From Candidatus Methanomethylicia archaeon (lineage in GTDB: Archaea > Thermoproteota > Methanomethylicia > CALHIW01), in contig JAWBQF010000008.1 in the NCBI GenBank assembly GCA_038845975.1, positions 1 through 64,000 on the forward strand: 64,000 bases of DNA, given 5' to 3'. Position numbers and translations under genes: made by a program. Below are positions 1 to 54,191 of the stretch, piece after piece. The notes beneath the pieces are model-generated. The model did not search any database. It was not told the origin of the DNA and saw only the letters and a program-made list of their open reading frames with translations. The stretch's first letter is position 1, and the number at the start of each line of letters is the position of its first letter.

Positions 1-239
1 AAGACCTCGTCAATAGTTGCAGTAGCTGAACCAGTATTCTTAACCTGAAGCGCGATAATAGGTCTTCCACTAGTATCTTTTCCAGAACAGTATATGTATG
101 ATATTTCTAGTTTTTCATATCTTGTGAATAGTCCTGCTATTCCTACAACCCAGAATGCTACTGCTATTGCGAGTGCTACTGCTACAATAATTATTGTTGC
201 TATTACTGGGCTTATACCCCTCCTATTTAGCCTCCTCAA
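1..239 (-). CDS. Archaeal type IV pilin / archaellin-like protein (5' part; runs off window start)
   Basis: Manual translation of the minus strand from TTG at 239: MRRLNRRG|ISPVIATIIIVAVALAIAVAFWVVGIAGLFTRYEKLEI...LQVKNTGSATATIDEV. This is a class III signal peptide (basic RRG, then a hydrophobic helix). Not in the ORF track. Confidence 0.9.
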   Translation of the reverse strand, partial: MRRLNRRGISPVIATIIIVAVALAIAVAFWVVGIAGLFTRYEKLEISYIYCSGKDTSGRPIIALQVKNTGSATATIDEV

Positions 240-567
240 TTTACAATGCCATGTATGTGTTAGGGTTAATGGTTTAGACAATAACAAGTTAAGAAGTATA
301 AGATTTTGAGAAATCGATGAACATTTAGAGACCTCATGGGGGACAATACATAAGTAAAAATAGAACATGCTAAAAAGTAATGGATGTCTAATAACATGCT
401 ATAATTTGAGCAAGACCACAGATTGCTAAATGAGTAGACATCATGTAGAGAATTGATTGAATATGGGTAAATGGAGATTATAACAAGAGGGTGATAAATG
501 GTATAACATCTAAAGTTTGTAGTGTATTCTTCTTGTAGGGAAGACTTAAATAGTTTTAGGTGATTTT

Positions 568-2070: not shown

Positions 2071-2107
2071 ACTATAGATGTGTGTAGTTACTATATAGGT
2101 GTGTAGT
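2071..2107 (+). promoter_or_regulatory. Tandem 18-bp operator-like repeat (ACT-N12-AGT x2, 19-bp period)
   Basis: actatagatgtgtgtagt (2071-2088) and actatataggtgtgtagt (2090-2107), 16/18 identical, between a TATA-like cttattaa (2064-2071) and ATG at 2108. Confidence 0.7.
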
Positions 2108-3193
2108 ATGCTTTTTCAGGATAGACCTGTTGAAAACCCTAATGATCTATATGATCGTGAAGAGGAGTTGGAGAAGTTAAGGAAAGCTATGATGGAGAAA
2201 GCAATTACTCTAGTTATTGGTTTTAGAAGAACAGGAAAGATATCTCTTATTAAGGTTGCAAGCTTAAATAATAATGTAGTTTATGTTGATGCTAGAGTGT
2301 TTGAGGAGCGAAACTATATAAACAGAGAGATTTCTAGAGGAGTTTGGTAAGGGAATTAATTCCTTCATACCGAGGAAAAAGAGAATTCTTGAATTTCTTA
2401 AGAATATATCAGGTATTAAAGTAAAAGGTTTTGAAGTTATGTTTTCATGGAGTGGGGGAGAATTTCATTCACATCAATACTAGAAGAACTTAATAGATGG
2501 CTGAATTAGATAATACGAAACTCATAGTTGTTATAGATGAAGTTCAAGAACTAGTAAAGCTGAAAGGATTCAGCCTACTTCCCACTATTGCTTATGCTTA
2601 CGATAATTTAAGAAATATCTCATTTGTTTTTGCAGGTTCTAAGATAGGTATGCTGTACAAGTTTCTTAAGATAGAAAATTCATCCTCTCCACTCTATGGA
2701 AGATACATGGAGGAAGTGGATGTTAAGCCCTTATCCCGTGAGCAATCAATAGATTTTCTATATAAGGGATTTAGTGAGGCTGGAGTTAATCCAAGTAGGG
2801 AGATAATAGAGGATGCTGTAGATAAGCTAGATGGTATTATAGGGTGGCTTAGCTACTTCGGACTTACTGCACTAAGAAATGGATTAAGTGAAGAAACAAT
2901 AAGAAAGGTACAGAATACTGCATTTAAAATAGTTATTAGTGAATTCTGTAATTTTGTTAGAAGTAGAGGCTCAAGAAGATATATGGAAATCCTGAAAGCT
3001 GTGAAAAACAGTGCATGTTGAAGTGAAATAAAAAGATATCTTGAACTTAAAACAGGTGAAAAATCTACGACCCGAACTTTCAAAACTACTTAGAAACCTC
3101 ATAGATTCATCATTCATAGAGAAGAAAGGCGAAATCTACATAATTCAAGATCCAATACTAAGATATGCTACTGGAAAAATCATGTTAACTTGA
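2108..3193 (+). pseudogene. Archaeal ATPase (ATPase_2 P-loop + C-terminal wHTH), disrupted
   Basis: MLFQDRPVENPNDLYDREEE; degenerate Walker A GFRRTGKI; Walker B IVVIDEVQ; SPLYGR. Frameshifts near 2320, 2460 and 3060 and an in-frame TGA at 3019. Confidence 0.88.
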
Positions 3194-3360: not shown

Positions 3361-4485
3361 TTAGAGATTTTGAATTGTATATTTTAGGATTGAATCCGTA
3401 ATATTGTAGGTTACTTCCCCGTCTTCATGTTTCTTCTCAATAATTCCCATTTTCTGTAGGTTTAGAAGTAGTTCGTGGAGAGCTGGGTCACTAAGTGGTT
3501 GTAGTTCTTTTGATATTATGTAGCTCTTTATTTCACTCCATCTCCGCCTATTTAGGGATATGCTTTCAAGTATGTAGCGGTATCTTCTACTTCTTTGAAA
3601 TAGTTCTTCAAGCTCCCTTCTTACAAGCTTAGAGCCTTGAATAAAGGTTTCCATAATGCTCTCTCTTTTATTAACTAGGTTTTTATCGATTGATATCCTC
3701 CCGAAGAAGACAAGCCAGCCTATAACTCCATTAAGGTAGTTAACAGCCTCCTCCAAGAATTCATTGGAGGGTTTAACTCTATACTCCTCGAATCCTCTTC
3801 TAAGAAAGTTAATGCTTTCCTCTCTGCTTAGTCTTTCTAGGGTTACTTCATAGTAGTATCTTCCGTAAAGCTCGGATTTAGGATTGTCTATTCCTAGGAA
3901 ATCATGTAGTAGTCCCACCTCACTACCTGAGAGAATTAGGCTAATATTTTTTAGATTATCGTAGATATAGGCTATTAAACCTCTAAAGTTTAGTCTTGAG
4001 TATCTTAGGTATTGTCCTTCATCAAAGACAATAATGGCCCTTCTACCTTCATTCCCACTCCATTCATCCATGGCTTCAAGAAGCCTATAGAGAATGGGGA
4101 ATCCTCTATTAACCTTACCTCCCAAATCTACACGTATTCCTGTAGGTGAAATCTCTATGCTTGAAACCCTTCCTAAATATTCTTTAAACCTCCTCCATAA
4201 CTTGGAGGAAACTATTTTGTTAACGTTTTCCTCTACCATCTGGTAGATACTATAGCTATTTATAAAATTGTATTTTTGATATATTCCTCTAACATCAAAG
4301 TATATGTATGGATTTTTCATTAAGTTAAGAACAACCCTAATTAAGCTAGATTTTCCAATTCTTCTAATCCCCAATACTAGAATTAACTTTCTACCCTCAA
4401 CTAAAGCTCCTCTTAAACTATCTATATCCTCCTCTCTATTAAAGAAATCTTTAACATCTTCTTTGACATCCTCATCAAATAACAT
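3361..4485 (-). CDS. Archaeal ATPase (ATPase_2 / AAA+ STAND-related) with C-terminal wHTH
   Basis: MLFD...FFNREED; Walker A GIRRIGKSS; Walker B IIVFDEGQ; SGSEVG; SELYGR; C-terminal RWSEIK...L.NLQKMGII. Confidence 0.92.
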   Translation of the reverse strand: MLFDEDVKEDVKDFFNREEDIDSLRGALVEGRKLILVLGIRRIGKSSLIRVVLNLMKNPYIYFDVRGIYQKYNFINSYSIYQMVEENVNKIVSSKLWRRFKEYLGRVSSIEISPTGIRVDLGGKVNRGFPILYRLLEAMDEWSGNEGRRAIIVFDEGQYLRYSRLNFRGLIAYIYDNLKNISLILSGSEVGLLHDFLGIDNPKSELYGRYYYEVTLERLSREESINFLRRGFEEYRVKPSNEFLEEAVNYLNGVIGWLVFFGRISIDKNLVNKRESIMETFIQGSKLVRRELEELFQRSRRYRYILESISLNRRRWSEIKSYIISKELQPLSDPALHELLLNLQKMGIIEKKHEDGEVTYNITDSILKYTIQNL

Positions 4486-4797: not shown

Positions 4798-6291
4798 TTG
4801 AAGGCTATGTTTATAATTGCCATATCACTATTGTTTATTTTTTCACTTGTTTTCAGCTTTACTTCATGTTCAGCTGAGGCTGTTGTTACCCGTTCTAACC
4901 TTATTGATTGGGATGGTTCTCTCTTCTGGTTTAATGTTACGTTTCCTGATGAGTGGGCTGTTAAGCATAATTATACTGTTGATTTTAGTTTTAAGCTTGT
5001 TACGTTGAAGGGTAATGCTGCTTTACGTTTAATAAGACTTCATGCATATATTCCCGGAACTGAGATTTCCAATTCTACACCTATTATGAGGGAGCTGAGG
5101 ATTGATGATGTTTACACAGTCTCCCTAAGTTTCTGGGCTAAGGACTTTTCATTCAGTTCAATTCCTGCCGGTAGCTCTAAGCTTTATAAGATTAATATTG
5201 ATCTTTACGGTGAGATTGATAAGGTTGTTAAGGATGTAAAATATACCTATCCTAAGAGTTCAAGCTTTAGCTTTAACCTACAGATTCGATCACCAGCTGC
5301 TCCAGTAATTCTATCACATAATGCTCCAAGTAGTGTTGACGTTAATGCTCCATTCGATATTGGCTTAACTCTTCTTAATGGTGGTGAATACTTTATTAGG
5401 AACATTAAGATTCAAGCTCTCCCTCCTAGTGGTCTTCAGCTTCGTAGTGTTGATGTTTTCGAGGTTAAATCTATGAGTGTTAATGAGAGTAAAGTGTTTA
5501 CGTTTAGATTTATAGCTTTAAATCCTGGCTTACATAGTGTTAAGTTTACAGTATCCTATATTAGCTATGGAGACTACGAGGTTAAGAGGGATTTAACAGT
5601 TCAGGTGAGAGCTAAATCTCTAAGTAGTATTACATGTAGCTACAGTCCCAAAACACCTACAGTTTTCACTCCTGTAAATATTACTGGATCTATTAATCCT
5701 AATCGTCAATCTGAAATTAGTGTACTTGTTATAAATCCTATGAATATGAATAAAACATTTACAGCTAAAACAGATTCTAAAGGTATGTTTAGTACTGCAT
5801 TTACTCCTGATGTTATTGGTACGTGGAGGATTGTTGTAAGCTGGCCTGGTGATAGTGAGTATAGCTCTTCTCAAACATCTTTTAGTATTGATGTTGGTAA
5901 GGGTGTATTAAATGTGGTTTTAAGTATTAATCCTGAAAATCCTAGAATTGATAGTGATGTTACTGTTTCAGGTAGGCTTTCAATACCAGTAGATGTAACA
6001 TTATCCCTACTTATTACTTCCCCTACTGGTTCATCATCTAGATTTAATGTTCAAGCATCTAGGGGAAGCTTTACATATACTTTTAGGGTTAATGAGGCTG
6101 GTACATGGGTTGTTGATGTAAGCTGGCCTGGTAATGAAAGCTTTCAGGGATTCCGTAGAGTACAAACATTTGAAGTCCATACTCCTGAAAGAGGATTCTT
6201 ATTTGGATTATCTCTTGCCCAACTCATCATAATAGCCTCAGTAGTAATTGTATTTATTGTTGTTTTACTGATTGTGTTTAGGAGGCGTTAA
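4798..6291 (+). CDS. Secreted, membrane-anchored surface protein with several Ig-like (CARDB / COG1361 / Big-like) domains
   Basis: N-terminal signal peptide; beta-rich Ser/Thr-rich body; two repeats GTW.(I/V).VSWPG(D/N); C-terminal TM helix followed by RRR. Confidence 0.8.
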   Translation: MKAMFIIAISLLFIFSLVFSFTSCSAEAVVTRSNLIDWDGSLFWFNVTFPDEWAVKHNYTVDFSFKLVTLKGNAALRLIRLHAYIPGTEISNSTPIMRELRIDDVYTVSLSFWAKDFSFSSIPAGSSKLYKINIDLYGEIDKVVKDVKYTYPKSSSFSFNLQIRSPAAPVILSHNAPSSVDVNAPFDIGLTLLNGGEYFIRNIKIQALPPSGLQLRSVDVFEVKSMSVNESKVFTFRFIALNPGLHSVKFTVSYISYGDYEVKRDLTVQVRAKSLSSITCSYSPKTPTVFTPVNITGSINPNRQSEISVLVINPMNMNKTFTAKTDSKGMFSTAFTPDVIGTWRIVVSWPGDSEYSSSQTSFSIDVGKGVLNVVLSINPENPRIDSDVTVSGRLSIPVDVTLSLLITSPTGSSSRFNVQASRGSFTYTFRVNEAGTWVVDVSWPGNESFQGFRRVQTFEVHTPERGFLFGLSLAQLIIIASVVIVFIVVLLIVFRRR

Positions 6292-6292
6292 T

Positions 6293-7210
6293 ATGATTGA
6301 TTTGAAAAGTAGTTTTCATATCTACCCATTCACTATGGCTAGACTCTATGCTATAGGTGTTTTACTGATTGTTTTAGGTATTAGATTTATTTATCTTATA
6401 GGTAGTTTAACCTCATTATTTGATCTCTACTTTACTCTTGGAGTTATAATATCTATAGTTGCTGTATCCACCATTAAAACTCCTAAACTTACTCTTCTCT
6501 CTATAGTGAAGATATTTCTAGCTGTAATTCTTCTTATACTACCATTTGTTATTGGTGAGCTTTTCATGATTTATCTACCTTACACGTATTATCATAGCTT
6601 CGAAAGCTTCCTTATGTGGTTTTTCTCCTATCTCATGGTTCACCAGCAATTTATAGCTCTACTATCATCTATACTAATTCTTCTTACAGGTGTCTCACTA
6701 ATTATCTATGCTGTAGCTTCAAGCTTGATTGTTAAGATTAGGCTTACTGAGGATGGATTGATTGTTGAGGAGGGATTTTTAAAACCTATCCATGTCTCAA
6801 TACCATTCAGTGAAATTGTTAATGTTGAGGTTTTACAGAATAGGTTTGAAGAGCTTTTCGACTACGGTAACTTAATTATTATTAGGAAAACGGATTCTAT
6901 AAGTATTAACGGTATTGAGAAGCCATGGCTATTAAAGAAGCATATTGTAGGTAGGATTCAGGAGTTTACTAGGAGGGAAATTACAGCTACCTTTGATGAG
7001 CTTGCAGGTACTCTTGACTTTAAGTCAACATGTAAAATATGTTTAAAACCATTAATGACAGGTTCAGGTACATTATCTCTTATTAAATGTCCATATTGTG
7101 GTGCAGTATATCATGATGAATGCATGTCTCTATGGCTTAAAAACGAAAATACATGTCCTAGCTGCGGTACTAATCTTTTAAATATTTTAGGTATTAGGAG
7201 GACTGGATAA
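6293..7210 (+). CDS. Membrane protein with bacterial PH (bPH_2) domain and C-terminal RING-type zinc finger
   Basis: About 4 TM helices; bPH_2-like GLIVEEGFL...SIPFSEIVNVEVLQN..E.LFDYGNLII; C-terminal CKIC-x15-CPYC-x4-H-x2-C-x3-W-x6-CPSC. ATG at 6293 is preferred because it directly follows the upstream stop. Confidence 0.8.
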   Translation: MIDLKSSFHIYPFTMARLYAIGVLLIVLGIRFIYLIGSLTSLFDLYFTLGVIISIVAVSTIKTPKLTLLSIVKIFLAVILLILPFVIGELFMIYLPYTYYHSFESFLMWFFSYLMVHQQFIALLSSILILLTGVSLIIYAVASSLIVKIRLTEDGLIVEEGFLKPIHVSIPFSEIVNVEVLQNRFEELFDYGNLIIIRKTDSISINGIEKPWLLKKHIVGRIQEFTRREITATFDELAGTLDFKSTCKICLKPLMTGSGTLSLIKCPYCGAVYHDECMSLWLKNENTCPSCGTNLLNILGIRRTG

Positions 7211-7211
7211 T

Positions 7212-9257
7212 ATGCCCATATTTAGAAGAGGTAGGAAAGAAGTAGGTAGTAGCGAACCTACTGTAAATGAGAAGATTGAAGAGGAGAAAACTGAGAAGAA
7301 GATTGAGGCTTCTCAAACCATACCTATTAAAAAGATTTTAGTGAGAACTAGGAAGAGAAGAATTGAGGAGAAGATAACATACACCTTTAAACCATTACCG
7401 TCAACCTATGTACTTATAGATTCCTACTGGGTTAAGGAGCCCTATGCAAAGGTAAATATTGTCTCACTACCTGAGCTTGGTGGTGCTTATGCATACTATG
7501 TTGATGAAGTTAAGCTTTCAAGAGATGAGAGAAGGATATGTGATAGGTTAATCGATATTTTAAGCGCTGAGCTTAGACCTCCTGAAGTAGATGTTGAAGA
7601 TGTTAAACAATACGTTCTAGATGAGGCTAGAAGGCTTTCACGTAAGTATAGAATTGCATTGGGAGGTCTTACTGAGGATAGTTGGAGTAGAATACTCTAC
7701 TATGTTGAGAGGGATCTTATAGGTTTCGGTCCTATTCACGTTATGATGGGAGACCATAATATTGAGGATATATCATGTGAAGGTATTGGTAGACCCGTAT
7801 ATGTATGGCATAGAATTTATGAAAGCCTCCCAACAAATCTTATATTTATAGATGAGAATTCACTTGACGACTTCATAGTTAAGCTTGCACATATTGGTGG
7901 TAAACATATATCAACAGCATTCCCAATCGTTGATGCTATGCTTTACGGTAAGCATAGGCTTGCAGCAACATTTAAGAAGGAGATTTCACCTAGAGGCTCA
8001 ACATTTACAATAAGAAAGTTTAGGGAGAAGCCGTTTACAATTACTGAGCTTATTAAGCTTGGAACTATTGATGAGGAGATGGCTTCCTACTTCTGGATTC
8101 TCCTAGAGAATAAGGCTTCAATAATTGTTATGGGTGGTACAGGTGCTGGTAAGAGTACAACTCTTAATGCTCTTGCAAGCCTTATTAAGCCAGGTATGAA
8201 GATATGTACTGTCGAGGAGATTGCTGAGCTTAACTTCCCACATGAGAACTGGGTTCAATTCGTTACTCGTGAAAGCTATGGTCTTGGAAGCTCAACAGCT
8301 GGAAGTATTGATTTATTTACACTTGTTAAGACAACTCTTAGATATAGGCCTGACTATATTGTTGTAGGTGAGGTTAGAGGACAGGAAGCATTTGTACTCT
8401 TTCAAGCTTTAGCTACAGGTCATGGTGGAATGTGTACAATACATGCTGAAAGTATAGATTATGCTGTTAAGAGGCTTACAAGCCCACCTATGAATGTAAG
8501 TGAGGTTTATATTCCACTTATGAATGTAGCTGTTCTTGTTGAGAGGGTTTACCTACCTAGAAGAGTTGGTGGCTTAAAGTTCGGTAGGAGAGCTAGGGAT
8601 ATATCTGAGGTTTTAGGCTATGGGGAATATGAACCAATATTTAGATGGGATCCTATAAATGACTCCTTCATCTCAAACATTGAGAAAAGCTACCTACTAA
8701 ATAAGATTGCTCAGAGAATAGGTAAGTCTCTCGGGGATTTGCTTGACGAGCTTATAAGGAGGAAAACCGTTTTGAAATGGATGGTTTCTAAGGGGATATT
8801 TGATATGAGTGATGTTGCTAAGATAATTACTAGATACTATATTAATCCATCTGAAGTATATGAGAAGGCAGCTGCGGAGATAGGTGCACCGATAAAGCTT
8901 AAAGTTACTACTACAATGCCACAAGCTAGAGAACCCATAATTACTGCTCAGCCAATACTAGCAATTTCACCTGAAGAAACTTCAATAGAAGCTCTTGACG
9001 ATAAAGCATACGGTATACTTAAAATACTAATAAGTAGAGGGGGTAAAACAACATATGGAAGCTTACTATCAGAAACTCCACTAGCACCTGTTGAATTCTG
9101 GAGATATCTAAATACTTTAAAGGAGGCTGGATATGTTGATATTAAAACAGGATCCGACGAGTCCGGTAAGCCTAGAACAATTGTAAGCATAACTGAATCT
9201 GGGGAGAAATTATATAAGTCATCAGTAGAAAACAGGGAAGGCAAAAACACCTCCTAA
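7212..9257 (+). CDS. Type II/IV secretion / pilus assembly ATPase (FlaI/TadA/VirB11 family) with extra C-terminal wHTH
   Basis: IEDISC; FTIRKF; Walker A GGTGAGKST; LRYRPDYIVVGEVRG; His box TGHGGMCTIHA; C-terminal DDKAYGILKIL...FWRYLNTLKEAGYV...VSITESG. Confidence 0.92.
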   Translation: MPIFRRGRKEVGSSEPTVNEKIEEEKTEKKIEASQTIPIKKILVRTRKRRIEEKITYTFKPLPSTYVLIDSYWVKEPYAKVNIVSLPELGGAYAYYVDEVKLSRDERRICDRLIDILSAELRPPEVDVEDVKQYVLDEARRLSRKYRIALGGLTEDSWSRILYYVERDLIGFGPIHVMMGDHNIEDISCEGIGRPVYVWHRIYESLPTNLIFIDENSLDDFIVKLAHIGGKHISTAFPIVDAMLYGKHRLAATFKKEISPRGSTFTIRKFREKPFTITELIKLGTIDEEMASYFWILLENKASIIVMGGTGAGKSTTLNALASLIKPGMKICTVEEIAELNFPHENWVQFVTRESYGLGSSTAGSIDLFTLVKTTLRYRPDYIVVGEVRGQEAFVLFQALATGHGGMCTIHAESIDYAVKRLTSPPMNVSEVYIPLMNVAVLVERVYLPRRVGGLKFGRRARDISEVLGYGEYEPIFRWDPINDSFISNIEKSYLLNKIAQRIGKSLGDLLDELIRRKTVLKWMVSKGIFDMSDVAKIITRYYINPSEVYEKAAAEIGAPIKLKVTTTMPQAREPIITAQPILAISPEETSIEALDDKAYGILKILISRGGKTTYGSLLSETPLAPVEFWRYLNTLKEAGYVDIKTGSDESGKPRTIVSITESGEKLYKSSVENREGKNTS

Positions 9258-9423: not shown

Positions 9424-10371
9424 GTGGTAGCTATAGATATTTATGAGGCTGAGCAGAAAATTATAGATGTACTTGTAAATCAATCAGTCAGTGAGATAAA
9501 ACCAGTTTTAGATAGAGCTCAAGTTATCCGTTACCCTTTAATTGAGGATGTTTTAGGTCTTCCAGGCCCTGAAGTACTAAATATTCTAACTCAACTATAT
9601 GAGTTAGGTAGCCTCCAGAGAAGGCTCTACTTTAGGGTTGCTGTCTGTCCTAAATGTGGTGTTATAGATCCACTCTTAATAAGTATTTCATGTCCAAACT
9701 GTAATTCTGTAAATGTTTTTAAGAAGGTGTTTGTTAGACATGTTAAATGTGGATATGAAGGATTAGAGGATAGTTTTAGTGTAGGTAGCTGTCCTAAATG
9801 TAATGTTAAATATACTAGATCAAAAGATTTTATTAAAAAGATAGTTTTTGAATGTAGTGATTGCGGTAAACAGTTTAAGTGTCCAGGTATAACATATACT
9901 TGTAGAAGCTGCTTTACATCTTCAAGTATTGGTAGTGTTTCATTTATGGATGTATATTCATACAGTATTAGTAGGCTAAATCTTCTTAAAGTAGCATTAA
10001 TATCTAGGATTAAGGATCTATTTACTAGTTTAGGATATCGTGTTGAAACTCCAGGATATGTTGAGGGTATAAGCGGGTTAAAGCATAGATTTGATATCTA
10101 TGCTTCTAAGCAAAACAATTCTGTTAGGATGCTAATCAGTATTTACGTGTTTGATAAGCCTATTGATGAACGAGCTATTATGAATTCATTTGCTGTAAGC
10201 TTCGATATATATCCTCTACAAAGCATAATTATAGCTATACCAGGCATATCGGAATCTGCTAGACAGTTTTCACAAGTTCTTAAAACAAATATTATTGAAG
10301 CCTCAAATATTGAGCAGGCGTTGGAAAAGTTTAAAAACTTCATTAATCAAAACATTAAACAGATAATTTAA
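9424..10371 (+). CDS. TackOD1-like multi-zinc-ribbon protein with C-terminal restriction-endonuclease-like fold
   Basis: N-terminal wHTH-like segment (RYPLIED); CPKC, CPNC, HVKC, CPKC, CSDC and CRSC knuckles; GISGLKHRFDIYA (Mrr_cat-like). Confidence 0.65.
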   Translation: MVAIDIYEAEQKIIDVLVNQSVSEIKPVLDRAQVIRYPLIEDVLGLPGPEVLNILTQLYELGSLQRRLYFRVAVCPKCGVIDPLLISISCPNCNSVNVFKKVFVRHVKCGYEGLEDSFSVGSCPKCNVKYTRSKDFIKKIVFECSDCGKQFKCPGITYTCRSCFTSSSIGSVSFMDVYSYSISRLNLLKVALISRIKDLFTSLGYRVETPGYVEGISGLKHRFDIYASKQNNSVRMLISIYVFDKPIDERAIMNSFAVSFDIYPLQSIIIAIPGISESARQFSQVLKTNIIEASNIEQALEKFKNFINQNIKQII

Positions 10372-13710: not shown

Positions 13711-14226
13711 TTGATGAGAATCGGTATATTATCTGATAGTCATGATAATCTAGTAAATATTGAGAAGGCAGTTAAAACACTTAATCAGTTCAGTATTGAT
13801 CTTGCCATTCATTTAGGTGATTACATAGCTCCATTCAGTATTAGGAGGATTGGTGAGCTTCTTAAGACTAGACTTATAGGTGTATTCGGGAATAATGATG
13901 GTGATAAATATTTAATATTAAGTAATGCTAAAACCTACGGTTTTGAAATTTACGATTCTCCATACATGCTAAATATTGATGGATATTCAATACTGGCTAT
14001 GCATGGATACAGCTCTAAAGAGTTTACTAAAAGTCTTATTCATAGCTTATGTTTATCCGGTAAGTATGATGTTATCATGTATGGGCATACACATGAGGTC
14101 CACATAGAGAAAATAGGTAAATCCCTAATTATAAATCCAGGTGAGGTTTTCGGCTATCTATCAGGGAATGCTTCTATTGCTGTTTTGGATTTGGATGGTT
14201 TAAAAACAGAGATTGTTAAGCTTTAG
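13711..14226 (+). CDS. YfcE / MJ0936-family metallophosphoesterase
   Basis: SDSHDN; HLGD; GNND; MHG; GHTH; NPGE. Confidence 0.92.
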   Translation: MMRIGILSDSHDNLVNIEKAVKTLNQFSIDLAIHLGDYIAPFSIRRIGELLKTRLIGVFGNNDGDKYLILSNAKTYGFEIYDSPYMLNIDGYSILAMHGYSSKEFTKSLIHSLCLSGKYDVIMYGHTHEVHIEKIGKSLIINPGEVFGYLSGNASIAVLDLDGLKTEIVKL

Positions 14227-14240
14227 CTTAGTGTTGGTTT

Positions 14241-15332
14241 ATGATTCCTATTGCTAAGCCTATTATTGATGATGATGAAATTGAAGCTGTTGTAAGGGTT
14301 TTAAGATCCGGTATGATTGCTCAGGGTAGGGAGGTTTATGATTTTGAAAGAGAGTTTGCAGGCTATGTAGGGGTTAAGCATGCTATTGCTGTTTCAAGCG
14401 GTACTGCTGCTTTAGATATTGCCTTGAAGGCTTTAAATATAGGTGAAGGCGATGAGGTTATTACAACACCATTTACATTTATAGCTTCAGCTAACTCTAT
14501 CCTCTTCCAGAAGGCTAAACCAATATTTGCAGATATAGATTCTAAAACCTTTAATCTAGATCCTAATAGTGTTAATGAATGTATAACATCTAAAACTAAA
14601 GCTATTCTTGTAGTTCATCTTTACGGTCAGCCTGCAGATATGAAGGCTTTTACTGAGATAGCTGAAGACAATAATTTAGTATTGATTGAGGACTGTGCTC
14701 AAGCACATGGTGCAGAGTTTTCCGGAAGAATGGTTGGATCGTTTGGTCATGTAGCTGTATTCAGCTTCTACACTACTAAAAACATTACAACTGGTGAGGG
14801 AGGTATGATTGTTACTGGTAGTGATGAGATTGCATGGAGGGCTAGACTTCTAAGAGATCATGGACAGACTGAAAAGTATTATCATATAGAGCTCGGCTAC
14901 AATTTCAGAATGACAAATATTCAGGCAGCTATTGGTAGAGTTCAGCTTAAAAAACTTAATCTACTAAATGAGATTCGTAGTAGAAACGCTAAGCTACTAA
15001 CTAGCGGTATTAGTAGAATTAAAGGTTTAACGCCTCCATATGTTGATAGTAGAGTTAAGCATGTATGGCATCAATACGTAGTAAGAGTAGAGAATGATTT
15101 TAAGCTTGGAAGGAATGAACTTGCAGAGCATTTAAGATTGAAGGGTATAGAGACAAGTATACATTACCCTATGCCAATACATTGGCAACCCCTCTATCAG
15201 AAGCTAGGCTATCCGAGAAGTATTTGTCCTAATGCTATAGATGCAAGTATGAAGGTTCTCAGTCTTCCAGTTCATCCCCTGCTAAGAGAGGACGAATTGA
15301 AGTATATTGTTAATGTATTGGAGAGTATTTAG
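14241..15332 (+). CDS. DegT/DnrJ/EryC1/StrS family sugar aminotransferase
   Basis: SSGTAAL; VHLYG; EDCAQAHGA; FSFYTTKNITTGEGG; GYNFRM. Confidence 0.93.
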   Translation: MIPIAKPIIDDDEIEAVVRVLRSGMIAQGREVYDFEREFAGYVGVKHAIAVSSGTAALDIALKALNIGEGDEVITTPFTFIASANSILFQKAKPIFADIDSKTFNLDPNSVNECITSKTKAILVVHLYGQPADMKAFTEIAEDNNLVLIEDCAQAHGAEFSGRMVGSFGHVAVFSFYTTKNITTGEGGMIVTGSDEIAWRARLLRDHGQTEKYYHIELGYNFRMTNIQAAIGRVQLKKLNLLNEIRSRNAKLLTSGISRIKGLTPPYVDSRVKHVWHQYVVRVENDFKLGRNELAEHLRLKGIETSIHYPMPIHWQPLYQKLGYPRSICPNAIDASMKVLSLPVHPLLREDELKYIVNVLESI

Positions 15333-15909
15333 AACCTAGCATTTTTTTAAATTCTTCAAGATCTCTCCAATGTCCTCTTGCAAACAATGTATCATTAGCC
15401 TGAATTCTAGTATCTGAGCTTGGATTAAGTATCCATTTACCGTTTCTTCTTACTGCAACTATACGTATCCCCATTGTTTCTTGAAGTTTCAACTCCTCAA
15501 GAGACTTATTCTTAATACTTGATTCATCATCAACTCTCAGTTTTAAAATTGTTTCCTCAGATTCGTTTACAGCTATTCTTAATACTTCATGGGGTTCAAC
15601 GCCATCTAATACTGGCTTAACCATTGATAATGCTGCATCAGCTAGAGATTCTGCAACCAATCCAACTCTTAAAGCTCCAAGATATTTTCCAGCTTCCTCC
15701 TCAAACTGTGCAAGAGATAATATGTTTAACTCGTAGTTTGTATGTAGATCATCAACATACTCCTCTAATCTTTCAACTTCCTCAGCAAGTTCAACATTAT
15801 TGTATAGTAATGCTGTGTATGCTAGATCAACCATGAATTCCGAAATGTTTTTAAGCTCTATAAGCATATCCATTACTCTAGATATTTTCTCCCTAAACAC
15901 TTCCACCAC
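15310..15909 (-). CDS. PhoU + TrkA_C (RCK_C) domain protein (COG3273-like)
   Basis: LKNISEFMVDLAYTALL...E.LAD.A; C-terminal GIRIVAVRR...WILNP...D.L..RG. Confidence 0.85.
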   Translation of the reverse strand: MVEVFREKISRVMDMLIELKNISEFMVDLAYTALLYNNVELAEEVERLEEYVDDLHTNYELNILSLAQFEEEAGKYLGALRVGLVAESLADAALSMVKPVLDGVEPHEVLRIAVNESEETILKLRVDDESSIKNKSLEELKLQETMGIRIVAVRRNGKWILNPSSDTRIQANDTLFARGHWRDLEEFKKMLGSKYSPIH

Positions 15910-16489
15910 CTATTCTAGATAGTATTTCAGCTCCTAGTGCTGTTGTCTTAACTATTATATAGTCGTTTTCCCTAAGTCTAGTATCTTCACCTGGATTAAT
16001 TATAGTTTTACCTCCTCTACATAGTACTAGGGGAGTAAAGTCTACATTGAATTCATATGGGATTTGACCTAATGTTCTACCTATAAGCGGCGATAGGGGC
16101 TTTACATCAATTTTAACAACAACCTCATCAACCATTTTCAACGATTCAAGAATTATAGGATGTAGCTTAAAGCCCTTCAATAATATTTTAGCTAGATCTC
16201 CAGCAGCATTTGTAATTTCATCTATTGATACTGCAACTGAAAGTATTGGTAGAAGCTTTCTAGCATCCTCAACTGTTTCAGCAGCCATTAAAACCTTCAT
16301 TCTCAACATTGTAAGCAACTCATCAACTCTTTTCTCAAGTCTTAAAACCTCTCTAGCAATATCCTCTGAATCAAACATTACAGATGAAAACGCTAAATCA
16401 ACAATCCTTTCAGATATATTCTTCATTTCAATTAAAATATCTCTTACTGATCTAGGTTCTTCACCTATATCCTCCAATCTATTCTTCAC
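15893..16489 (-). CDS. PhoU + TrkA_C (RCK_C) domain protein (COG3273-like), paralogue
   Basis: EMKNISERIVDLAFSSV...I..AAGDLA; SPLIGRTL...INPG.DTRL.END. Confidence 0.85.
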   Translation of the reverse strand: MKNRLEDIGEEPRSVRDILIEMKNISERIVDLAFSSVMFDSEDIAREVLRLEKRVDELLTMLRMKVLMAAETVEDARKLLPILSVAVSIDEITNAAGDLAKILLKGFKLHPIILESLKMVDEVVVKIDVKPLSPLIGRTLGQIPYEFNVDFTPLVLCRGGKTIINPGEDTRLRENDYIIVKTTALGAEILSRIGGGSV

Positions 16490-17206
16490 CGTTGTAATAT
16501 ATATGCTAAGCCATATATAAGCTTAACCTTAAGAAACCATGCCATGTAAACCTTAGATTTATTTGTGGTTACGCCTATTCACTTATAGTGAGAGTATAGT
16601 TAAGGTTACTAGGATTTCCAGGAACTCATTTATATTAGTTATTTATATATTTCATTCATCCAGTATGGCTTAATACTTTAAGCTTTATTATTGTAGGATT
16701 ATGTATGTTGCTTTAAGCTCTTGCAGGATGCTTACATATGGAGTTGTAAATACGTTTACATCCACATCATCCCCTAAATTACAGTTCTTAATTATATCAA
16801 CTAATGGAGTACTATAAACATGTAGAATACTAATTAAGCATAATTTAGAAATTAGAAAATATGGGAGAATAATTAAGCTAGATGGAATTAAGCTATACAT
16901 TATCATGAAGAGTGACGTAATGTATTTATGCTTATAAAATAATAGCTTTACTCTACAACATGAATTAGTGAAAAGATAACTAAAGAATTCATAGAAAATA
17001 TAAAGAAGTAATTAAGTATGCTTAAGCCTAGAAAGGAAACTATACATTATAATGCTATTCTCGTTTAGCCTCTAATACTTCAAGAAATAGATTTACATAG
17101 TGAAATTTAAACTATTAGAAGAGTAGCTTGTATTTAACTGTAAATTATGTATTTAAAGCTATGTTAAGTTTAGTATAGTAAGTTTTATTAATAGTTAAGA
17201 AACAGT

Positions 17207-17788
17207 TTGAAAGGTGAGGTAGTGAGTTCAGTTTTACGAATAGTGTTTGAAGGCGTAATAGCTCAAGTAGTCTCAGTAACGATTGGGGTGCTTGCAGGTA
17301 TTGGATTAGCCTATATGAGGGGGGCTCTTGAAGAGCTTCCAGGCATGATTATTCTTGTACCTGCATTTCTTGAAATGAGAGGTAATATTAGTGGAACATT
17401 TGCTTCAAGGCTTGGAACTGCATTGCATGTAGGTATTGTGAAGCCATATGTAGACTTCAAGAATCAAAACTTAAAAGCCAATATTCTCGGTACATTTACG
17501 CTAGGTATTATTGAATCAATATTTATAGCTTTCTTTACATATGTTTTATGTTTAGCTTTCAGTTTTAAGTCTATGGGTTTATTTAATCTAGTTCTTCTAA
17601 TGATTATTGCTGGACTACTGTCAAACATAGTAATGATATTTTTAACACTTTACTCCACAATGTATATTTATAGAGTAGGTTTAGACCCTGATACGTTTAT
17701 GGGTCCATACATAACATCTGTTGGAGACGTTGTAAGTATTATTTGCCTATTTATTGCATCCTATATTGTTATAATTGTAGGTGTTTAA
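17207..17788 (+). CDS. MgtE / SLC41-type divalent cation transporter membrane domain
   Basis: PAFLEMRGNI.G.FASRLGT.LH.G; GLDPD.FMGPYITSVGD. Confidence 0.88.
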   Translation: MKGEVVSSVLRIVFEGVIAQVVSVTIGVLAGIGLAYMRGALEELPGMIILVPAFLEMRGNISGTFASRLGTALHVGIVKPYVDFKNQNLKANILGTFTLGIIESIFIAFFTYVLCLAFSFKSMGLFNLVLLMIIAGLLSNIVMIFLTLYSTMYIYRVGLDPDTFMGPYITSVGDVVSIICLFIASYIVIIVGV

Positions 17789-17790
17789 GT

Positions 17791-18354
17791 ATGGCTACAT
17801 ATAAAGCTTCAAGAATACTACGTGAAGGATTTACTGCAATAACTCTATCCGTTATGATAAGTACTTTTGCAGGTACACTACTTAATGTAAGACTTGAATC
17901 ACTAATTACTGTTCCAGTAATTCTCATTTTAATTCCTCCCTTCAACGATATGGCTGGAGATTTTGGATGTATTATAGGAGCAAGACTTGCAACAGCATTA
18001 CATCTCGGTATTATTAAGCCAAGAATTGAGAAGAATACATACCTATTTAGAAATATAATTGCCATTATATTTATAGCCATAATTTCCTCAATCTACTTAT
18101 CTATACTAGTTTATGCTATAGGGGGTATTATGGGCTTAAACATAGTTTCCCCCATATCAATACTTATACTTATACTCATATCATCAATACTTCTAGCTTT
18201 AATAATCATAGCTGTAGGAGTTATTGTAGCGTTTATTAGCTACATTTACCATTGGGATCCAGATAATACAACAATACCAATCCTAACAGCTATAGGTGAC
18301 TTTACAGGTATACTAACACTTATCTATGTCGCCTCACTAATCCACATTATTTAG
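17791..18354 (+). CDS. MgtE / SLC41-type divalent cation transporter membrane domain, second half
   Basis: P.FNDMAGDFG.IIGARLAT.LH.G; WDPDN.TIPILTAIGD. Start taken as ATG 17791. Confidence 0.88.
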   Translation: MATYKASRILREGFTAITLSVMISTFAGTLLNVRLESLITVPVILILIPPFNDMAGDFGCIIGARLATALHLGIIKPRIEKNTYLFRNIIAIIFIAIISSIYLSILVYAIGGIMGLNIVSPISILILILISSILLALIIIAVGVIVAFISYIYHWDPDNTTIPILTAIGDFTGILTLIYVASLIHII

Positions 18355-43461: not shown

Positions 43462-44181
43462 GGCTTTGTTAACTTAAGCATGTTTTATCACCTCTATTTT
43501 GGCTTTGTTTTCTATGAATTCCTTAGCTTTTATTTTCCTGTTAATCCATGTTTGTTTAGTATGTATGCTATTTACTTCATAAGCATTAATGTATGTTCAT
43601 TACCGCATTTATCCTTCATGCATGGTATGTAGTTATCGAATACTCTAGTTCTATCCTTAACATACTGTATTATTCTCTCCATTAGTTCTAACCTCTAAAC
43701 TATATAATTCATGTTTTAATTTTAATATTTTACTGCTTTATAAGTATTGAGCTCCATCACTTAATACAGCTATATTTGAACCGTAAATAGCTCTAATCTT
43801 TTAAGGAATGTTAGAGATGTAAGCATGTTGCAACATCACAAACCCATACATATAGAATCCTTCTTAATAATGGCTCAAACACAACATAAACAATCTTCCT
43901 CATAGACCCCACATTAATAATAGTATCATCAACCATAAAATCTAACATCCCCCCTATCAAACTCAAATAGGAAGCTTAAGATAAACCACGATAATATAGA
44001 TACATAACCTAAAACAATGAAGCTTAAAATATCTGAAGCCATTCTAGAAGAACGGAAATATATAAGCAATAAACAACTAGAGTAAATGAGGGTTCTCTCC
44101 CTACAAACCTAACAACTTTAGACATACTAACACCATAAATAAGGGAGAGAACTCCCAAATAAATCTAAAGTTAACAAAGCC
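43462..44181 (-). mobile_element. IS6-family element remnant, copy 1
   Basis: 14-bp perfect TIR ggctttgttaactt / aagttaacaaagcc; broken transposase with VDDT, LSDGA.Y and ERIIQYVKDRT..FDNY.PC. Confidence 0.88.
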
Positions 44182-48823: not shown

Positions 48824-49496
48824 GGCTTTGTTAACTTAAGCATGTTTTATCACATCTATTTTTGGTATTATGTTTTCTATGAATTCCTTAGCTTTTATTT
48901 TCCTGTTAATCCATGTTTCGTTCAGTATGTATATTATTGATTTTATAAGCATTAATGCATGTTCACCATCACATCTATCCTTCATACAAGGTATGTAGTT
49001 ATCGAATAGCTTAGTTCTATCCTTAACATACTGTATTATTCTCTCCATTAGATTCTTAACCTCTAAACTATATCATGTTTTAATTTTAATATTTTACATG
49101 ATGCTTTATAATAATGAGTACCATCACTTAATACAACTATATTCCATAGATAGCTCTAATTTTCTTAAGGAATGTTAGAGATGTAAGCATGTTGCAACAT
49201 CACAAACCCATATGTAGAGAATCCTCCTCAATAATGGCTCAAACGCAACGTAAACAACCTTACTCTTAGAACCTACACTTATAATAGTATCATCAACCAC
49301 AATCCTAACATCCCTCCTATCAAATTCAAATAGGAAGCTTAAGATAAACCACGATAATATAGATACATAACCTAAAACAATGAAGCACCATAACAACTAG
49401 AGTAAATGGAGTCCCCCCTAACAAATCTAACAACTTTAACCATAATTCACCATAAATGGGGGAGAACTCCCAAATAAATCTAAAGTTAACAAAGCC
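48824..49496 (-). mobile_element. IS6-family element remnant, copy 2, with 8-bp target-site duplication
   Basis: Same TIRs as copy 1; flanked by agtagggg at 48816-48823 and 49497-49504; transposase fragments at 48836-49048 and 49175-49396. Confidence 0.92.
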
Positions 49497-53307: not shown

Positions 53308-54191
53308 AATATCTTGAGTTAATACTATTATAGATACTATTAAACTTTTACCTCTAAATTAAAATGCTTTATGAACTAACCTAAATAGTAAAAGTAATAA
53401 TATTAGAAATTCTATTACTTAATTAAGTTTCTTTAAAAGCGTAATGGAGTTAAATAAAATGATCTATTCTTCTATCTACCTTATTTTGGTAGCTAATAAC
53501 TACATGAGCAATGGAAATAGGGAAACTTAGCATTATAAAGCTCCTTAGTAGCAGTAGTTTAATCAATAAATTATTTGAATGGTACTTGTATAGCTTGGTT
53601 TAGTATTGTTTGAGGGGAGTTCCTATCAAACAAGAAGTATCTAAACATGTTTGCGATAAGCCCCCTCAAACAAGCCTCAATAGCTAAAATTACAGCAAGC
53701 TCAGATTTAATGATTAAACCCTATACCTAGCTTACTTTTTAGTACTATATGATTAACTTAAAGAAGTTGTTGTAAAACTCTACTACTTAGGTTTACTGGT
53801 TAAATTCTAATGTCAAAATAGTATTGTAGGAAGTTGCTAATATGCTTAAGCTCATATCTGAAGTTTTACAATAAGTTCAAAATAGAGATTTTATATTTCA
53901 CTATAGTGCTCTAAATAATACATTAGACTTAATAAAACAATTTAGTAATAAGATAAGTATAGAAGTATTATGATGATTAGCTTTATGAAGCTGTTAGCTT
54001 CATAGACTTAATCCATCACATGTACTCTCTATATTTGACTCCTTCAACTTCTCTTATACTCAAATGCTGAAGTAATGAGGGTTTAAGGAATTAGATACTC
54101 TAATTTATAAAGCTTAAGTAGTTTAGGTAAAAGTTTATAAGAAGGCCTTATACTATTTACGGAGTTTATAATGGGATAGTAATTAGAGATC

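Follow-up and report, generated by a model that had tools for sequence, protein, structure and literature searches.

The three genes found at positions 4798–9257 of the window (the whole stretch of 64,000 nucleotides analysed here) are probably the 3′ portion of an archaeal type IV (Tad-like) pilus operon, split off from the rest; its TadC platform would be the one encoded on a different contig (C37) of the same assembly, with a membrane PH-RING protein as an optional, probably non-ligating accessory and an Ig-fold protein as a recruit. As an earlier note on this DNA had described, the genes are separated by one-nucleotide gaps (6291/6293 and 7210/7212); all lie on the forward strand, have intact ORFs and encode, in order, an Ig-fold protein of 497 aa (4798..6291), a membrane protein carrying a bacterial PH and a RING domain, of 305 aa from its ATG (6293..7210), and a type IV pilus assembly ATPase of the TadA/GspE type with an extra C-terminal winged helix (wHTH), of 681 aa (7212..9257). 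Both intergenic joins read TAA-T-ATG, with AGGAGG inside the final codons of the preceding gene. Among the 1815 ORFs of at least 150 aa in this genome, an ATG at +1 is found in 54, the other offsets being −4 (134 ORFs), −1 (92) and elsewhere (27–62); a one-nucleotide gap is by itself ordinary here, not rare. The gene order is maintained in four diverged metagenome loci, and order and gaps together are preserved at 72–89% identity in the loci of relatives. Transcription was also sought in an RNA run from a relative (X17, 7% of words), but its contigs on the Ig, PH-RING, ATPase, TadC and pilin genes do not show it, the piece spanning 7210/7212 having only 17 letters on one side.

The lack of a TadC/FlaJ platform, on which the earlier note had based an undescribed envelope system, holds for the immediate neighbourhood only: no such gene adjoins the ATPase gene, but a search of the genome finds the cognate TadC on contig C37. 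There, an operon without an ATPase gene comprises a 601-aa TadC (C37:18570-20375) and five pilin-like genes. The genome encodes four secretion ATPases, and those on contigs C31, C39 and C55 each have a TadC-like gene of their own. Among 40 relatives of the class, a C37-type TadC lies within 5 kb for 17 of the 19 best matches to the window ATPase (E<1e-150). In addition, across 35 ATPase/TadC locus pairs, the more identical the ATPase is to that of the window, the more identical the TadC is to that of C37 (Spearman 0.95, against −0.25 in a control with the C31 ATPase), kin among these pairs not being independent. The ATPase and TadC trees both join this lineage as sister to a Bathyarchaeia (B24-like) family, f17, with SH-aLRT values of 99.9 and 99.7. 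In fact, the operon is whole in three Bathyarchaeia relatives (G097, G083 and G146), where TadC, pil1-5, PH-RING and ATPase genes stand together, and in G048 the PH-RING and ATPase genes are found at a contig end. The orphan TadC operon on C37, the congruent trees and the whole Bathyarchaeia operon therefore point to the window genes as the probable detached end of a pilus operon, and the idea of a TadC-less envelope system falls, because the cognate TadC is present elsewhere in the genome and the Bathyarchaeia relatives hold all the parts in one operon. In three DNA runs the depth over the C37 region is similar to that over the window region, a weak indication, and no contig bridging C37 and the window contig (C8) was found. 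A locus of this kind should not be called a new secretion system before the whole genome has been searched.

The ATPase itself matches T2SSE (E=2e-34) as well as PilB3_C, and its Walker A, Asp box, Walker B and His box are all intact. Its best solved homologs are Archaeoglobus GspE (PDB 2OAP; E=9e-102) and Sulfolobus FlaI/ArlI (E=1e-71), with which it shares the catalytic motifs; unlike them, it has a tail of about 120 aa made of a linker and the wHTH (HTH_34 at 632-673, E=1e-4, below the cutoff). It scores 356.5 bits in the FlaI equivalog model, the cutoff being 550, and no archaellum genes were found in the loci read. According to its genes (a VirB11/TadA-family ATPase, a cognate though non-adjacent TadC, and pilins with class III signal peptides), the system is classed as an archaeal type IV pilus, with the predicted PH-RING accessory subunit as its new element. 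The ATPase would be the motor that builds the pilus from a multi-copy major pilin, with the TadC platform and five minor pilins supplied from contig C37; both this partnership and the pilus as output are predicted from the gene content.

The second gene product is indeed the fusion that had been proposed, with bPH_2 (148-209) and zf-RING_2 (246-291) both above the Pfam cutoff, preceded by four hydrophobic peaks that correspond to about four TM helices. It resembles the membrane bPH_2 proteins (PF03703; YdbS/YdbT-like) in that a bacterial PH domain comes after the TM helices, and differs from them in the added C-terminal RING and the pilus-operon context. Its AlphaFold model is of low quality over the TM helices (mean pLDDT 58); a fold search with it gave no match at E<=0.001, the best Foldseek match being the RING of RNF165 (E=9e-3), and all ESM Atlas matches were below 0.8. 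The PH-RING gene genuinely belongs to pilus loci in two Thermoproteota classes, yet as an optional member: most related pilus operons are without it, and in one it has decayed. A homolog that has no RING, P0069, also exists. These proteins apparently form a small, undescribed family of membrane proteins tied to one pilus lineage, and a literature search that reached few subscription papers turned up no account of a RING or PH-RING protein linked to pili. The protein is likely an optional adaptor or regulator tethered to the membrane; its PH domain and its RING, braced by zinc, would serve to bind other proteins, of the pilus or regulatory ones, and would not ligate ubiquitin. Modelling ATPase 55-560 and PH-RING 143-300 as a complex gave a score of 0.00, which counts neither for nor against contact between them.

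Most likely, the RING has no ligase activity and works as an interaction module, in a non-catalytic role. Its C4HC3 zinc ligands (C247, C250, C266, C269, H274, C277, C288 and C291) show cross-brace spacing, and the E2-contact residues I249, W281 and P289 are present, while the linchpin position is Gly292 rather than Arg or Lys. All eight ligands, the Ile, Trp and Pro, and the linchpin Gly are conserved in the eight tabulated RINGs from the branch of the window and that of f17, spanning two classes; the linchpin is Arg in 4/4 small RINGs of the ubiquitin-operon type, Ser in P0005, and K, K, S and G in four unplaced distant homologs. Substitution R69A impairs the archaeal E3 (PMC5654768). The Caldiarchaeum ubiquitin-operon RING E3 srfp shares the conserved Ile, Trp and Pro with the window RING (PMC5654768); the window RING differs from this type by its fusion to TM helices and bPH, its pilus operon, its Gly in place of Arg, and hosts with no detectable E2 or ubiquitin. 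Profile searches found E2 in none of six PH-RING carrier genomes (72-95% complete) and in 4/4 controls, and ubiquitin in none of the four carriers tested, all incomplete genomes, and in the one control. The ubiquitin-type modification output of the earlier note is thus unsupported, because neither E2 nor ubiquitin was found; the broader idea of a RING protein attached to the pilus machinery stands, with PH-RING adjoining the ATPase gene across the two classes. On the other hand, ligase death is unproven, because the E2-contact residues are kept and the membrane RINGs within true ubiquitin operons are also often without Arg (N, K, G, G).

Two more active roles have to be considered for this domain. 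One is that a ubiquitin-operon RING was co-opted into the pilus machine as a membrane PH-RING regulator of the motor, either as an E2-independent SAMP/Urm1-type ligase or as a retained protein-binding switch. We regard this as rather unlikely; if true, a RING anchored in the membrane would here act on a surface appendage of a prokaryote, with an architecture akin to that of eukaryotic membrane RING ligases. The other, which we consider quite improbable, is that the protein works as a membrane E3 ligase and marks the motor or the platform of the pilus for turnover, via an unassembled or divergent E2 or via SAMP/Urm1. It is favoured by the conserved ligands and E2 interface, by the RNF165 match, by the presence in this genome of a small JAB and an E1-like enzyme of the ThiF type, and by the nearest RINGs in sequence, which belong to JAB-Ub-E2-E1-RING operons within the same phylum (others of the closest matches are Promethearchaeota proteins); the E2 and ubiquitin not found and the linchpin Gly weigh against it, as does the finding that SAMP conjugation requires neither E2 nor E3 (PMC11354881). 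An intact RING in genomes without detectable E2 or ubiquitin offers a testable case for RING roles outside ubiquitin ligation.

The class III pilin that had been placed upstream is real, but it lies on the opposite strand and is cut by the contig start (1..240, reverse strand, from <1 to ~240). It is one of several near-identical copies of the major pilin, others being found at C37:5376-5798, at the C37 start and at the C70 end; it has 94% nucleotide identity to C37:5554-5804, and contigs that extend past the first position of the window derive from the pilin copy on C37. Prepilin peptidase (PibD/FlaK) was not found in this genome by Pfam, single-protein or custom-profile searches, and was found in 4/4 comparison genomes, two of them carrying the PH-RING operon; with 76 contigs and 93% completeness, the assembly may have a gap there. 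The missing peptidase would also suit a decaying remnant, with the operon split, the peptidase lost and no pilus made in this lineage, and so would decayed versions among relatives: a truncated ATPase without TadC (G090), a pseudogene (G076, whose PH-RING gene is a deleted, frameshifted remnant in an otherwise whole operon) and a broken Ig gene (L055). We give this little credence, given the intact ORFs and ATPase motifs, the order and gaps held at 72–89% identity, a TadC intact in 80-89% identical relatives, the multiplied major pilins and a minor-pilin region that varies between strains. The points standing against the favoured reading as a whole are that no peptidase was found, the want of a contig linking C8 to C37, the kept E2-contact residues and the G028 genome, where an ATPase-wHTH occurs and no TadC was found (93% complete).

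The Ig-fold protein is a lineage-specific recruit into this transcription unit: PH-RING adjoins the ATPase gene across two classes, but the Ig gene joins them only in the window lineage, so that the proposed co-conservation holds in part. A hydrophobic segment at its N-terminus and a TM helix followed by RRR at its C-terminus mark it as a secreted, C-terminally anchored protein, and it matches Big_3_5 below the Pfam cutoff (E=1.8e-7). Its AlphaFold model (mean pLDDT 86) has four Ig-like beta-sandwich domains, and a fold search with it gave generic multi-Ig matches only (TM-score <=0.30). Three full-length relatives are all found in MacB-type (MacB/FtsX) ABC operons, and around the Ig homologs, at 19 loci, no pilus gene lies within 1.5 kb. 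This surface protein was possibly recruited for adhesion or as an S-layer-side helper. The earlier note's own view, a TadC-independent surface-sensing module of the three proteins with the wHTH or TackOD1 as output, could draw on their joint presence in 6/6 true ATPase-wHTH metagenome loci and on a wHTH seen only where TadC is not adjacent (the window lineage and G028, TackOD1 following in both), but it is very unlikely, since the cognate TadC is retained and co-diverging, G028 lies outside the window clade and lacks the Ig and PH-RING neighbours, the Ig-homolog loci have no pilus gene within that distance, and f17 operons carry PH-RING without Ig or wHTH.

Among systems already described, the closest are the archaeal type IV pili of TACK archaea, clade 4 of Makarova, Koonin and Albers (2016; PMC4858521). 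They have in common with the present one a VirB11/TadA-type ATPase, TadC, a set of minor pilins, major pilins that stand alone and the TackOD1/arCOG06883 companion; that work also reports loci that are split, as well as additional membrane proteins, S-layer-like proteins and accessory proteins that bind zinc. A membrane PH-RING accessory and a C-terminal wHTH on the ATPase are absent from the main text of that work, where RING occurs once, in a reference, and HTH and PH domain do not occur (PMC4858521). Finally, a gene overlooked in the earlier note lies 166 nt downstream of the ATPase gene (9424..10371, forward strand) and probably has its own promoter. TackOD1 was compared as a possible origin of the ATPase wHTH, with no match. 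This gene encodes the zinc-ribbon protein TackOD1 (arCOG06883), a known companion of archaeal pilus loci.

The three open reading frames proposed in the earlier note, all on the forward strand, were borne out on the sequence. The first (4798-6291, 497 aa) encodes an Ig protein with a signal-like N-terminus and a C-terminal transmembrane helix with RRR, confidently modeled by AlphaFold as four beta-sandwich domains (mean pLDDT 86). The second (6293-7210, 305 aa) encodes a membrane protein (PH-RING) with four hydrophobic peaks and bPH_2 and zf-RING_2 domains, each above the Pfam cutoff, and the third (7212-9257, 681 aa) an ATPase of the T2SSE family with a C-terminal winged helix (ATPase-wHTH). 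Its Walker A, Asp, Walker B and His boxes are all intact; 2OAP is its nearest solved relative, and the ATPase scores under the FlaI cutoff. Both junctions read TAA-T-ATG, with AGGAGG within the last codons of the preceding gene; among the ORFs of this genome, 1-nt gaps are unremarkable (54 of 1815). Downstream of the ATPase lies a TackOD1 gene (9424-10371, forward strand), a family (arCOG06883) present in thaumarchaeal pilus loci according to Galperin et al. (PMC5847659). The class III pilin noticed near the window start is genuine, although it lies on the minus strand and is truncated by the contig start. Between this pilin and the Ig gene are found a broken nucleotidyltransferase-like pair (568-1234) and a frameshifted archaeal AAA ATPase (2099-3083), adjoined by an intact one (3361-4485). 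The genome (2.77 Mb, 76 contigs, completeness 93%) shares its phylum, although not its class, with the named Bathyarchaeia; two of its class-mates carry mcrA, which points to Methanomethylicia. The window stretch is present in hot-spring metagenome runs.

The absence of a TadC partner, as earlier supposed, does not hold. The genome encodes four secretion ATPases, and those on contigs C31, C39 and C55 each have a TadC-like neighbor, whereas contig C37 lacks an ATPase and has a 601-aa TadC, with two T2SSF domains, upstream of five pilin-like genes. Of the 19 ATPases that match the window's best (E<1e-150) in 40 class relatives, 17 have a C37-type TadC within 5 kb, the exceptions being genome G028 and one copy in G026. 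Over 35 ATPase/TadC locus pairs, in which kin are not independent, the more identical an ATPase is to that of the window, the more identical is its TadC to that of C37 (rho 0.95, against -0.25 in the control), and in close relatives TadC identities of 80-89% are mirrored by ATPase identities of 77-89%. The lineages of the window ATPase and of the C37 TadC are each sister to f17, a Bathyarchaeia family that includes archaeon B24, in trees of 49 ATPases (FastTree 0.997, SH-aLRT 99.9) and 41 TadC N-halves (0.982 and 99.7). From family knowledge, synteny and this co-divergence, the window ATPase most likely drives the C37 TadC pilus; acting on this platform, it would assemble an adhesive pilus from the multi-copy major pilin together with the minor pilins of C37. 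Another pilus locus, on C39 (L002:5786-8176), has a TadC with a long N-terminal extension, followed by many pilin-like genes; by motif, the extension is presumably a von Willebrand A-like domain.

A less likely alternative is that the window ATPase works independently of TadC, a reading whose main remaining support is G028. In this genome (0.9 Mb, 93% complete), an ATPase-wHTH gene is followed by TackOD1 (L084:38-3181, contig C41), and neither a TadC nor any other secretion ATPase match was found; its ATPase falls outside the window clade. The winged-helix tail itself was detected on an ATPase in 2 of 62 class genomes, this one and that of the window, both of which were in the query.

The putative pilus operon divided between C37 and the window has an unbroken counterpart in f17. 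When 401 genomes of the phylum were searched with a PH-RING profile, 69 gave a match, and the long form was found, besides the window genome, only in four f17 genomes, the remaining matches being to the RING or bPH part alone. In three of the four (G097, G083, G146) the order is TadC, five pilin genes, PH-RING and ATPase, and in G048 PH-RING and ATPase stand at a contig end. The f17 ATPases, at 63-67% identity, are closer to the window ATPase than any class-mate (50-58%); they lack the winged helix, and their operons lack the Ig gene. Decay is also seen: G076 keeps the operon whole, yet its PH-RING gene has lost the first ~190 codons and is frameshifted, and G090 retains a truncated ATPase alone and no TadC. 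G139 has an ATPase fragment, and G118 neither ATPase nor TadC. The related operons of families f5, f6, f8, f23 and f32 have no PH-RING gene next to the ATPase. PH-RING, carried by f17 operons and absent or decayed in related ones, is therefore a genuine though optional component of a single pilus lineage. It forms a small family, with 11 matches at E<=1e-10 among 1.84 billion representatives, including two eukaryote-like RING repeats and P0069, which has no RING. The PH and RING domains of this membrane protein are predicted to be cytoplasmic, and it is probably a dispensable adaptor or regulator acting through protein binding. In f6, f8 and f2 (L131:4376-5530, L132, L133), the ATPase is followed by a different gene of ~380 aa that matches no Pfam family and is convergent with the TadC-pilin operon.

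The proposed co-conservation of the three genes stands only in part. Of seven metagenome loci returned, six keep their order, two of these six being near-identical and four 72-89% identical; both 1-nt gaps persist in L054, L056 and L057, and the Ig gene of L055 is broken. The f17 operons do not share the full order, and the seventh locus was an unrelated, weak match. Full-length Ig homologs were found in only three of 301 genomes (G154, G248, G303; 22% identity), where they immediately precede MacB/FtsX ABC genes; no pilus gene lies within 1.5 kb at any of 19 homolog loci. Anchored proteins with four Ig domains stand just ahead of such transporter genes at L143, L144 and L146, two of these loci also having PadR. 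The Ig protein is probably a surface recruit, co-translated with PH-RING and the ATPase in the window lineage.

It seems unlikely that the RING was co-opted from a ubiquitin system to control the pilus motor. The finger is C4HC3, the prokaryotic RING arrangement (PMC11354881); its closest matches are Promethearchaeota proteins and both the small RINGs and the membrane RINGs found in JAB-Ub-E2-E1 operons (3 of 4 loci read, in other families of the phylum), and it retains Ile249, Trp281 and Pro289. In the Caldiarchaeum srfp, ubiquitylation is impaired by I30Q, W58A and R69A (PMC5654768). Directly after the last Cys, all eight tabulated window- and f17-branch RINGs have Gly, versus Arg in four of four small RINGs, an argument weakened by the membrane RINGs of ubiquitin-operon type, in which Arg is likewise missing (N, K, G, G). 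Neither E2 nor ubiquitin was found in the carriers searched: an archaeal E2 profile had no match in the window genome and five f17 genomes (4/4 controls matched), nor had PF00179 in the window genome, and ubiquitin was found in 0/4 carrier genomes (1/1 control). In the window genome, an enzyme of ThiF type (255 aa) and a JAB of 128 aa are compatible with a SAMP-type system, for which E2 and E3 are not needed (PMC11354881). Elsewhere (L085, L086, L087; f24, f38, f18), JAB-ubiquitin-E2-E1-small RING operons have a second, membrane-bound RING protein nearby, and in f35 (L088) both RING genes are separate from the E2 gene. As for an undescribed envelope system, Makarova et al. (2016, PMC4858521) describe archaeal pilus loci that are split, additional membrane proteins and accessory proteins that bind zinc, and the window system is therefore of known type; a PH-RING accessory was found neither in the main text of that paper nor by literature searches.

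The weak point of the pilus mechanism is the prepilin peptidase, present in 4/4 comparison genomes and not found in the window genome, plausibly owing to an assembly gap. A set of near-identical major pilins, some of them in tandem, occurs at window 1-244, C37:1-612 and 5376-5798, and the end of C70 (nucleotide identity 79-95%), and the assembly breaks at these copies. In DNA runs, the minor-pilin region (L107:13300-17300; C37 ~14000-18000) is thinly covered and has segments replaced from strain to strain, suggesting pilin diversification, while TadC is conserved. Finally, dispersed repeats of 130-450 bp, probably MITE-like elements, are present on most contigs of the genome, with window copies at 16643-16706, 43597-44065, 48968-49386 and 53763-53878.
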